Origin: an uncultured Methanosarcinales archaeon
Lineage (GTDB): Archaea; Nanobdellota; Nanobdellia; Woesearchaeales; GW2011-AR9
Length of the DNA: 64,000 nt
Direction of reading: 5' to 3'
Assembly: GCA_964344235.1 (NCBI GenBank)
Contig: CAYFMJ010000002.1
Span: 127,601 to 191,600 of the forward strand
Under the pieces are notes generated by a model. That model saw only the letters and a program-made list of their open reading frames with translations. It made no database searches and was not told the DNA's origin. This document shows, in pieces, positions 20,250 through 22,401 of this stretch (within the stretch, counting starts at the first letter, position 1; each line of letters starts with the position of its first letter). Both the position numbers and the translations under genes were made by a program.

Positions 20250-20397
20250 TTAACTATCACCTCTTTTTTTTAAGGGTCCTATGACGGGTTCCCTTATAGT
20301 TTCCTACTATTATTTTTTTATTTATATGTCTTTTGTTTTTTATCCGTCTATTTTTATAGCAAAAACTTAATAAAAGGGTTAGCGGTTTTCTGTGTAT

Positions 20398-20577
20398 CCC
20401 CTCTTAGTTTAGCTTGGCTAGAACGCTCCGCTGTGTGTTCTTAGGAAACTGAGAACAGGCGAGAGATAAGTTCACTGTTGGACTAAGCCTTTAGGGCTCT
20501 GGATGAAATACAGCCAGTGGGGACGGAGAGACATCTTCGGATGCTTCAAATCCCCGGTTCAAATCCGGGAGAGGGGA
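20398..20577 (+). tRNA. tRNA-Tyr(GUA) with 3 introns: 35/36 (20435-20463), 37/38 (20466-20522), 45/46 (20531-20549)
   Basis: C1:G72 and A73 (archaeal Tyr identity). Strict BHBs: CGCU/GGCG for intron 1, GGAG/CUUC for intron 3. Splicing restores the loop CU-GUA-GA. Confidence 0.8.
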
Positions 20578-21231
20578 CTCCGAAGGCAGGGTGTGCGTTC
20601 TCACCCTTGCCTTCACATATTTTTCAATTTTTTCTTGTTTTCTAACACAATAAAAACCAATTTCTTTGTAGAACTTTTCTATGTCTTTGATCACAATTGC
20701 GAAAACATTTCTTTTTGCACCAAATCCCGATTTAATAGTGTTCTCTATTCCGAATTCAGAGATCATTTTTTGTACTTGTTTTAGGCCTTTGAAATTGATT
20801 GAGTAGAGTCTTAAAATTAATCTTCTTCCTTCTGGGATTACACTCCCCTCGTCGTCGTATAGGGCTTTTAAGAACTCACGCTTGATGCTTTTACTAGCTT
20901 CTATAATTTCTTTTGGAACGGTCCAAGTCCTAGAGAAGTAATCACAGTAACTCTTAAGATCTTCATATGCTAATTTTGACCTAACTCTTGCGTAAGGAAG
21001 AAGCTTGCCCGTTTTTCCGGATGGCTTGAGTGCAACAACCGGTTTTAGCCCATAAACATTGTCTAAGTCATCAACAAACTGTTGTAGTAATTCTGGGTCT
21101 GTGATGTCATATTTAATGTTGTAATCAGTTCGGCACTTGTAAGCACAACCATCGCCAATCAAGTGAGCGATTAGCCTTGCTTTAGCTTCTGTTAACTCTT
21201 TGAAGCCGGGTTTTAGTCTCTTGATTCTCAT
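20491..21231 (-). mobile_element. Free-standing double-motif LAGLIDADG homing endonuclease, convergent on tRNA-Tyr
   Basis: LIAHLIGDG and FLKALYDDEGSV motifs; LYSINFKGLKQV block; last ~30 codons are antisense to tRNA-Tyr. Confidence 0.88.
20582..20614 (+). other. 12-bp hairpin immediately 3' of tRNA-Tyr
   Basis: GAAGGCAGGGTG / CACCC(T)TGCCTTC with an 8-nt loop. Confidence 0.6.
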
Positions 21232-22110: not shown

Positions 22111-22242
22111 GCCCTGGTAGTGTAGCTCGGCCTAGCATGTTGCCCTGTCGGAAACTTTTTCGGAAGTTTGTGGATAGGCAACGACCCGGGTTCAAAACGT
22201 GAGGTGTTGAATCAACTCATGCTGAATGTCCCGGCCAGGGCG
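22111..22242 (+). tRNA. tRNA-Asp(GUC) with 2 introns: 37/38 (22151-22175) and 59/60 (22197-22228)
   Basis: GCCCUGG/CCAGGGC-G73; CU-GUC-G|A loop; BHB central helices CUGU/GUGG and UUCA/UGAA. Confidence 0.92.
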
Positions 22243-22255
22243 TTTCAAGAAGCGA

Positions 22256-22284: not shown

Positions 22285-22401
22285 GGGCCGGTAGCTTAGC
22301 TTGGTAGAGCGCCTGACTTTTAGCAAAAAACAGGAGTTTTTTGAAACTTCCTGCCGAAAGTAATCAGGCGGTCGCGAGTTCAAATCTCGTCCGGCCCACC
22401 A
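22285..22401 (+). tRNA. tRNA-Lys(UUU) with 37/38 intron (22323-22362) and encoded CCA
   Basis: GGGCCGG/CCGGCCC-A-CCA; BHB central helix CUUU/AAAG. Confidence 0.93.

Follow-up and report, generated by a model that had tools for sequence, protein, structure and literature searches.

A tRNA-Tyr gene with three predicted introns, one of them inside the anticodon, in a DPANN archaeon

Our analysis concerns a 180-nt tRNA gene on the plus strand of a 64,000-nt stretch of DNA (G000:C2:127601-191600, hereafter the window) from the assembly of a DPANN archaeon, G000, which comprises 1.19 Mb in 37 contigs with 39% GC and an estimated completeness of 96%. The acceptor, D and T arms of the gene (Table 1) are all intact: it opens with CCCCUCU-UA followed by a normal D arm, and it ends with the T arm CCCGG-UUCAAAU-CCGGG, the acceptor strand AGAGGGG and a final A. 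The acceptor stem is perfectly paired, with C1:G72 (C20398:G20576) and the discriminator A73 (A20577), and between the D and T arms the gene has about 105 additional bases. We assign these bases to three introns and model the gene, with high confidence, as a tRNA-Tyr. For the whole explanation, in which this is the recognisable tRNA-Tyr(GUA) gene of G000, the single one that we found, and in which a three-intron precursor would be spliced to Tyr(GUA) by the endonuclease EndA and the ligase RtcB, we estimate a probability of about 85%.

Standard gene finders either overlook this gene or give it the wrong name. ARAGORN in its default mode called no tRNA in the whole 64-kb window, and the Rfam tRNA model did not match the gene even at E<=10. 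When introns were allowed (ARAGORN -i), the gene was labelled His(gtg) with an 86-nt intron, (38,86), as the initial annotation of this DNA, made from the sequence alone, had predicted for automated tools. Across the entire G000 genome, just nine tRNA genes score above the Rfam threshold, and only about 15 combine an intact acceptor stem with an intact T arm. For an assembly that is 96% complete, this scarcity argues that most of its tRNA genes are hidden by interruptions, in keeping with the remark that DPANN genomes contain disrupted tRNA genes that remain unidentified (PMC5829648).

The additional bases were examined with scans for bulge-helix-bulge (BHB) motifs as defined in bioRxiv 10.64898/2026.10.13.758758: a central helix of 4 bp whose exon strand is the tetranucleotide just before the 5' bulge, two bulges of 3 nt in which cleavage follows the second base (shown below by an arrow), and flanking helices h on the exon side and h' on the intron side. 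The central helix is paired at 4/4 positions in all three introns, G-U pairs being counted. In intron 1 it is CGCU/GGCG (C20429-U20432 with G20458-G20461), the bulges are GU↓G and AG↓A, h has 2 bp (C20428:G20465 and U20427:A20466) and h' has 9 bp, which makes it a member of class hBHBh'. Once intron 1 is removed, intron 2 has the central helix CUGU/GUGG, with three G-U pairs, the bulges AG↓A and GG↓A, an h of 5 bp formed by the anticodon stem and an h' of 1 bp (class hBH). Intron 3 combines the central helix GGAG/CUUC and the bulges AG↓A and AA↓A with an h' of 4 bp (CAUC/GAUG) capped by a UUCG loop, and lacks the exon helix h (0 bp; class HBh'). The scans thus bear out the coordinates and pairings first proposed for the gene, including a strict BHB for the intron at 35/36; the third motif, at 45/46, had also been called strict and is indeed a BHB, but a relaxed one, since h is missing.

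Cutting at these bulges yields an exact mature sequence of 75 nt that forms a perfect cloverleaf and is called Tyr(GTA) by ARAGORN. The AG exon supplies A36 and G37 in this product, as the initial annotation had proposed. Two variants of the exon boundaries were rejected: placing the AG exon at 20462-20463, the other half of a tandem AGAG, leaves no 4-bp central helix, and the orthologues have a single AG; bounding intron 2 at 36/37 or 38/39 gives the identical product but no BHB. Motifs of the quality of that of intron 1 (BHB1) are rare by chance, at 0.024 per shuffled gene, whereas loosely defined BHBs are frequent, at 6.1 per shuffled gene. We therefore place weight only on BHB1 and on the comparative evidence.

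Table 1. Features of the tRNA-Tyr gene and its immediate surroundings (window coordinates)
Feature	Position	Strand	Remarks
AT-rich box TTAATAAAA, probable archaeal TATA box	20367..20375	+	Centre ~27 nt upstream of gene; presumed from its position, by general knowledge of archaeal promoters; sequence only
tRNA-Tyr gene	20398..20577	+	
Exon 1, tRNA positions 1-35	20398..20434	+	CCCCUCU, D arm, CUCCG, C32 U33 G34 U35
Intron 1 (29 nt), site 35/36 inside anticodon	20435..20463	+	hBHBh' motif
Exon 2, AG = A36 G37	20464..20465	+	Required for GUA plus G37
Intron 2 (57 nt), canonical 37/38 site	20466..20522	+	hBH-type, complete only without intron 1
Kink-turn-like module in intron 2	20475..20513	+	Helix, GGA, hairpin AGCC-UUUAG-GGCU, GAUGA, helix
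Intron 2 3' end CAGUGGGG	20515..20522	+	Complementary to tRNA positions 27-34 (20426-20433)
LAGLIDADG_3 endonuclease open reading frame	20491..21231	-	Convergent on tRNA gene
Exon 3: A38, CGGAG (anticodon-stem 3' strand), A44 G45	20523..20530	+	
Intron 3 (19 nt), site 45/46, variable loop	20531..20549	+	HBh' motif, UUCG-capped hairpin
Exon 4: AUC (46-48), T arm, AGAGGGG, A73	20550..20577	+	CCA not encoded
G+C-rich hairpin then T runs, probable transcription terminator	20582..20634	+	Assigned from sequence alone

The comparative evidence comes from a BLAST search of 114 genomes of the same family, in which exons of the Tyr gene were detected in 71. We extracted 21 orthologues (loci L002-L019 and L118-L136), making 22 genes with that of the window. 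The 37-nt exon 1 is 84-100% identical to the 5' exons of the family orthologues, the majority of which have a single 37/38 intron and can be read directly as CU-GUA-GA, and in-silico splicing gives Tyr(GTA) in 22/22 genes. Once spliced, the window gene is identical at 74/75 positions to the spliced gene of G010, which has one ordinary intron. The locus itself is syntenic, the gene for RpoA' lying about 4.3-5.6 kb away in many genomes. A homologous 37/38 intron is found in all 22 genes, and the 35/36 intron with its AG exon recurs in four other genomes (G023, G105, G106 and G115), which brings the carriers to five genomes in four genera; the AG is kept at the same place in every one of them.

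The paired bases of these motifs change together. In BHB1, the pair between position 30 and Y4 is C:G in the window gene; three genes have G:C there and one has G:U. At the fourth position of the central helix, U pairs with G or with A, and several pairs of h' change on both sides. The 45/46 intron could be assigned in nine genes, eight of which have the full 4-bp central helix, and the X and Y strands of this third motif (BHB3) covary, X1:Y4 included, from GGAG/CUUC to GGAG/CUCC, CGAG/CUCG and CGAG/CUUG. Compensatory changes of this kind between exon and intron argue that the BHB motifs of the Tyr gene are used.

The same observations bear on the idea that the gene is decaying or non-functional and remains unspliced, tyrosine codons being decoded by a gene elsewhere, for example in an unassembled part of the genome. 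Such a gene might be expected to show a motif as weak as that of intron 2, which is never predicted by folding, and an assembly in 37 contigs that is 96% complete, with only nine tRNAs above the Rfam threshold and hence many hidden genes, leaves room for a substitute. A decaying gene is, however, difficult to reconcile with a spliced form that is a perfect cloverleaf with all stems intact, with the retention of the three-intron layout in four genera by means of compensatory substitutions, or with synteny between this locus and the Tyr gene of the relatives; moreover, BLAST found no other Tyr-like locus in G000. We consider this explanation very unlikely.

The identity of the tRNA is of particular importance given the label produced by ARAGORN. 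We take C1:G72, A73 and GUA to be the identity elements of tRNA-Tyr, according to established knowledge of the archaeal and eukaryal tyrosyl-tRNA synthetase (TyrRS). The gene has all three, GUA appearing after splicing, and its 21 orthologues, all Tyr(GTA), agree; the features of a tRNA-His, for which we took G-1 opposite C73, a GUG anticodon and a purine at position 37, are lacking, with a T at position -1 and an A at position 73. The gene is thus of the Tyr type despite its apparent His reading, as the initial annotation had maintained. A GUG anticodon is obtained only if 20437-20522 leaves in one step, and a U then results at position 37. This is what would happen if the gene encoded a tRNA-His(GUG) with one 86-nt intron in the anticodon loop and a 19-nt intron in the variable loop. 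The unspliced RNA can indeed form the necessary hBH-type motif (CUGU/GUGG, bulges GU↓G and GG↓A, h of 5 bp), removal of which leaves C-U-G-U-G-U-A, and it is this intron that ARAGORN reports in intron mode, (38,86). A tRNA of this kind would nevertheless have U37, no G-1, and the Tyr determinants A73 and C1:G72; GUA is present in every orthologue, and G023 and G115 have GUU or GUA, not GUG, at the corresponding unspliced position. In folding predictions for the primary transcript, BHB1 also beats the fold that the His reading needs. Furthermore, G000 has a genuine tRNA-His gene elsewhere, at G000:C1:270808-270905, with G-1, C73 and GUG. Its canonical intron, 23 nt long, lies in a proper BHB, and ARAGORN calls the spliced form His. 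Taken with these observations, a histidine gene at the window locus is extremely improbable.

We also looked for a second tRNA-Tyr, another point raised by the initial annotation. BLAST with the Tyr gene found no further locus in G000 beyond 20398-20577, and a scan of the genome for the combination of acceptor stem and T arm returned no second gene with C1:G72 and A73; a search for anticodon arms with GTA or GTG, filtered only weakly on the T arm, let through far too many candidates to be informative. Neither of the two outcomes that the initial annotation had named as contrary to it was encountered. On the histidine side, a further His-like gene, likewise equipped with G-1, C73 and GUG, is located at G000:C1:270526-270641, 170 nt upstream of the clean tRNA-His gene. 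It has an AT-rich D arm, an extra intron of ~28 nt near the D loop and a 14-nt intron at 37/38, and GCTTGCGG is present at the 5' end of both His-type genes of this contig. Another 'His' call by ARAGORN (G000:C12:15794) was rejected, since the orthologues identify the gene as tRNA-Met(CAT) and the sequence 'CUGUGAA' falls within its first intron. This tRNA-Met gene (G000:C12:15795-15956; L022/L023) has a 32-nt intron at 30/31 and a long intron at 37/38; the latter shows 74-82% conservation between genera and, with its box-like GAUGA and CUGG motifs, may be an intron-borne C/D-type RNA.

How could three introns so close together be removed? The sole splicing-endonuclease gene of G000 encodes an EndA of 200 aa (region C13:3077-3337; locus L021 1474-2076, minus strand), a single-subunit alpha4-like enzyme that matches PF01974 and PF02778. 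It can be aligned gap-free with the enzyme of M. jannaschii (1a79), and the insertion found in the N. equitans alpha subunit is absent. The RtcB ligase is encoded at G000:C6. Three properties of the precursor indicate that intron 1 has to leave before intron 2. Before splicing, the 5' bulge of intron 2 (A20464 G20465↓A20466) sits 29 nt away from its central helix; BHB1 (20429-20432) and the central helix of the intron 2 motif (BHB2) share the bases 20431-20432; and the cuts on either side of the AG are only 2 nt apart, such that cutting both simultaneously would lose exon 2. We hold this part of the order, which is based on sequence logic and folding, with moderate to high confidence. The initial annotation had also proposed a fixed order, on the grounds that the CUGU/GUGG helix can form only after removal of intron 1. 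The precedence of intron 1 over intron 2, and the need of the intron 2 motif for it, stand; the reason is a different one, because CUGU (20431-20434) lies wholly in exon 1 and the helix is not split, and what is missing beforehand is the 5' bulge, together with the bases that BHB1 occupies.

The place of intron 3 in this order is suggested by folding. Pairing in BHB3 takes up 20525-20528, in the 3' strand of the anticodon stem, and BHB2 requires this stem as its h. In ViennaRNA predictions for the primary transcript, the BHB1 pairs have probabilities of 0.8-0.99 and the anticodon stem 0.00; the stem stays at 0.01 without intron 1 and rises to 0.32 without introns 1 and 3. It is thus likely that introns 1 and 3 leave first, in either order, and intron 2 afterwards. 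The gene would be transcribed as a precursor of ~180 nt, in which intron 1 would fold as hBHBh', its central helix being drawn from bases 30-33 of the anticodon stem and loop, and intron 3 could fold as HBh' with the 3' strand of the anticodon stem. BHB1 and BHB3 would not overlap, and both would exclude the anticodon stem that intron 2 needs. Excision of intron 1 and ligation would join U35 to A36-G37 and bring the 5' bulge (A36 G37↓A) next to the CUGU/GUGG helix; since this arrangement would exist only after ligation, intron 2 would be removed last. The AG exon would never be released, because it would stay attached to intron 2 until exon 1 had been ligated to it. Cleavage-ligation cascades have reportedly been demonstrated, by Tocchini-Valentini and colleagues in 2009.

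The central helix, the 3' bulge and h of BHB2 are common to the motif that would give a GUG anticodon, and the endonuclease could in principle use either. The gene could then have two products, Tyr(GUA) from ordered splicing and, from one-step removal of 20437-20522, a GUG tRNA with Tyr identity that would read His codons, as a regulated or an error-prone alternative. This would, however, require the precursor to escape BHB1, which dominates its predicted fold and whose use destroys the alternative site. The GUG reading is not conserved among the orthologues, U37 would be abnormal and the GUG product would mistranslate, all of which leaves a second product with scarcely any likelihood.

Returning to ordered splicing to a single tRNA-Tyr(GUA), several observations weigh against it. 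The central helix of intron 2 is weak, with its three G-U pairs and an h' of 1 bp, and its predicted probability was 0.0 in every folding state, in the window gene and in the four other carriers of intron 1. In two of the five carriers (G023 and G105), folding prefers a structure other than BHB1, and G115 lacks a good BHB at its 45/46 site. The tRNA census of G000 is partial, so that a very divergent second Tyr gene is possible. The predicted folds are dominated by a different structure, which we call the slip helix, in which the 3' end of intron 2 (CAGUGGGG) pairs with tRNA positions 27-34; it competes with both the anticodon stem and the BHB. Finally, the only EndA is alpha4-like and resembles the M. 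jannaschii enzyme, a type that, by description, cleaves only strict motifs and only at the canonical position (PMC3239211). In DPANN lineages with many disrupted tRNAs, an additional loop has been reported in alpha4 enzymes (PMC5829648). As a separate observation, G000 is full of introns at non-canonical sites or with relaxed motifs despite its simple alpha4-like EndA.

The slip helix has a probability of 0.93 after removal of intron 1 and is 3 nt out of register with the BHB. In the family, it pairs CAGCSG-NN with tRNA positions 27/29 to 34/35 over at least 6 bp in 22/22 genes. Its intron strand changes together with the anticodon stem (CAGCGG where the stem has CUCCG, CAGCCG where it has CUCGG), and the helix is under selection. 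For comparison, the central helix of intron 2 is paired at 4/4 positions in ten of the 22 genes and at 3/4 in the other 12, and the adjacent h' reaches at least 2 bp in just 6/22.

Intron 2 has a second conserved feature. In all 22 genes, the 37/38 intron contains a first helix strand, then (N)GA, a short hairpin and xAUGA, and finally the strand that completes the helix; this GA...AUGA module was found by pattern in 19 of the genes and by eye in the other three. Both of its helices covary freely, as in ACUCUUU/AAAGAGU, GCUGCGU/ACGCAGU and AGCGUCU/AGACGCU. Kink-turns (K-turns) are built on tandem sheared G-A pairs, formed by GA opposite xUGA, between a canonical and a non-canonical stem, and are bound by L7Ae. 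The module has the sequence signature of such a kink-turn and would be of the box C'/D'-like type; L7Ae and fibrillarin are both encoded in G000. Two further identities were considered for intron 2 and rejected, that of an H/ACA guide, for which no consistently placed ACA was seen, and that of a complete C/D guide, since terminal C and D boxes are absent.

Other tRNA genes of the window are interrupted as well. The tRNA-Asp(GUC) gene (window 22112-22245) has two introns, one at 37/38 and one inside the T loop. CUGU/GUGG is also the central helix of its 37/38 intron, there in a full hBHBh' motif, which confirms that the pairing is common to both tRNAs, as first noted. The tRNA-Lys(UUU) gene (window 22285-22398) contains one intron of 41 nt.

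The distribution of the intron-rich Tyr allele in the family is patchy. We compared the Tyr genes at L004, L118 and L127 against an RpoA' tree of 19 genomes, on which the carriers of the allele are not monophyletic. G023 is sister, with support of 99/99, to the non-carrier G072, whose Tyr gene is quite different, and the well-supported branches force at least two gains or losses of the allele. Over its full length with introns, the Tyr gene of G023 shares 91% identity with its G105 counterpart and 64% with that of its sister G072, and three distinct layouts of the Tyr gene are found within genus g64. Directly 3' of the gene and convergent with it, an open reading frame (ORF) of the LAGLIDADG_3 type is present in three of the five carriers, namely the window, G023 (G023:C42:14136-14747) and G106 (G106:C128:3491-4099); these homologues, from three genera, share 54-55% identity. 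The window ORF has no stop at the usual end, and its last ~42 codons run antisense through the terminator hairpin and the 3' part of the tRNA gene. No LAGLIDADG_3 remnant was seen at the Tyr loci of the carriers G105 and G115; a check at a permissive threshold found no such ORF at five non-carrier Tyr loci, and the other 3-kb Tyr flanks searched gave no match at E<=1e-3.

The discordance with the tree, the identities of 91% versus 64% and the adjacency of the LAGLIDADG gene suggest, at low confidence, that the interrupted allele has spread with the help of the endonuclease. The full form of this idea, that the allele is a mobile unit travelling with a free-standing LAGLIDADG gene, we regard as speculative and rather unlikely. 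The unit may comprise the 35/36 intron, the AG exon, its own subtype of the 37/38 intron and usually the 45/46 intron. The endonuclease would cut tRNA-Tyr alleles without the 35/36 insertion, and repair would copy in the interrupted allele, whose intron breaks the target site, in a manner that can be likened to the 'collaborative homing' of free-standing endonucleases and phage group I introns. The window also contains, at 34649-37882, a DNA gyrase B gene with an intein (Intein_splicing domain, residues about 450-875), which together with the LAGLIDADG ORFs increases its load of selfish elements.

tRNAs with several introns and a forced order of splicing are already known, and the gene described here is an extreme example of them. 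In Thermoproteales such as Pyrobaculum, Thermofilum and Caldivirga, tRNA genes have up to three introns with forced sequential splicing (PMC4033280, PMC8450103). As here, BHB introns occur at canonical and non-canonical sites of the same gene, and standard tools miss or mistype the genes. Their introns, too, can be so close that one must leave before the next BHB forms (PMC8450103; PMC4033280). Our gene differs from these in belonging to a mesophile-like DPANN/Woesearchaeota genome with 39% GC, in its single alpha4-like subunit in place of the (alpha-beta)2 endonuclease, and in an anticodon split at 35/36 that leaves a 2-nt exon. A search of the accessible literature found no described 35/36 intron or 2-nt tRNA exon, a weak negative because '35/36' is poorly searchable.

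Closer in phylogeny is ARMAN-2 (Ca. Micrarchaeum), also of the DPANN group, with many non-canonical and multiple introns, among them adjacent introns at 53/54 and 59/60 in one T loop, each in a strict hBHBh' motif (PMC3239211). The exon between those two introns has 6 nt and belongs to the T loop, whereas here it has 2 nt and lies in the anticodon, and ARMAN-2 has a three-unit epsilon2 endonuclease. In Asgard archaea the interruption is heavier still: according to the accessible parts of two sources, 92-95% of tRNA genes have introns, more than half have several, many of the introns are non-canonical, and additional ones were found by hand beyond those of tRNAscan-SE (PMC11291895; bioRxiv 10.64898/2026.10.13.758758). 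These organisms belong to a different superphylum, and the same parts of the sources describe no 35/36 intron or 2-nt exon. In the three-intron pre-tRNA-Ile of the eukaryote Cyanidioschyzon merolae, experiment showed that processing starts with the outer introns and ends with the 37/38 motif (PMC3728597), the order that we infer for the tRNA-Tyr precursor. The C. merolae motifs fold independently and their order correlates with free energy, whereas here it would be forced by shared nucleotides and the 2-nt exon. What is particular to our gene is the intron in the anticodon, the 2-nt exon, the alpha4-like EndA, the K-turn-like module and a possibly mobile allele.

With the gene model, a DPANN genome regains a tRNA-Tyr that would otherwise count as 'missing', and a concrete route is exposed by which an intron-aware finder mislabels Tyr as His, an error that is relevant to the completeness of codon tables and to metabolic or recoding inferences from metagenome-assembled genomes of this kind. 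For the question of how a simple alpha4-like endonuclease recognises its substrates, the gene is an extreme test case provided by nature, combining an intron in the anticodon, a 2-nt exon that can be lost, and a weak canonical motif set against a conserved alternative helix. Within the family, a single syntenic locus occurs naturally with one, two or three introns, and the patchy allele beside a homing-endonuclease gene is a testable lead on how protein-spliced tRNA introns spread. If the mobile reading proved true, it would reveal a homing route for the protein-spliced tRNA introns of archaea.

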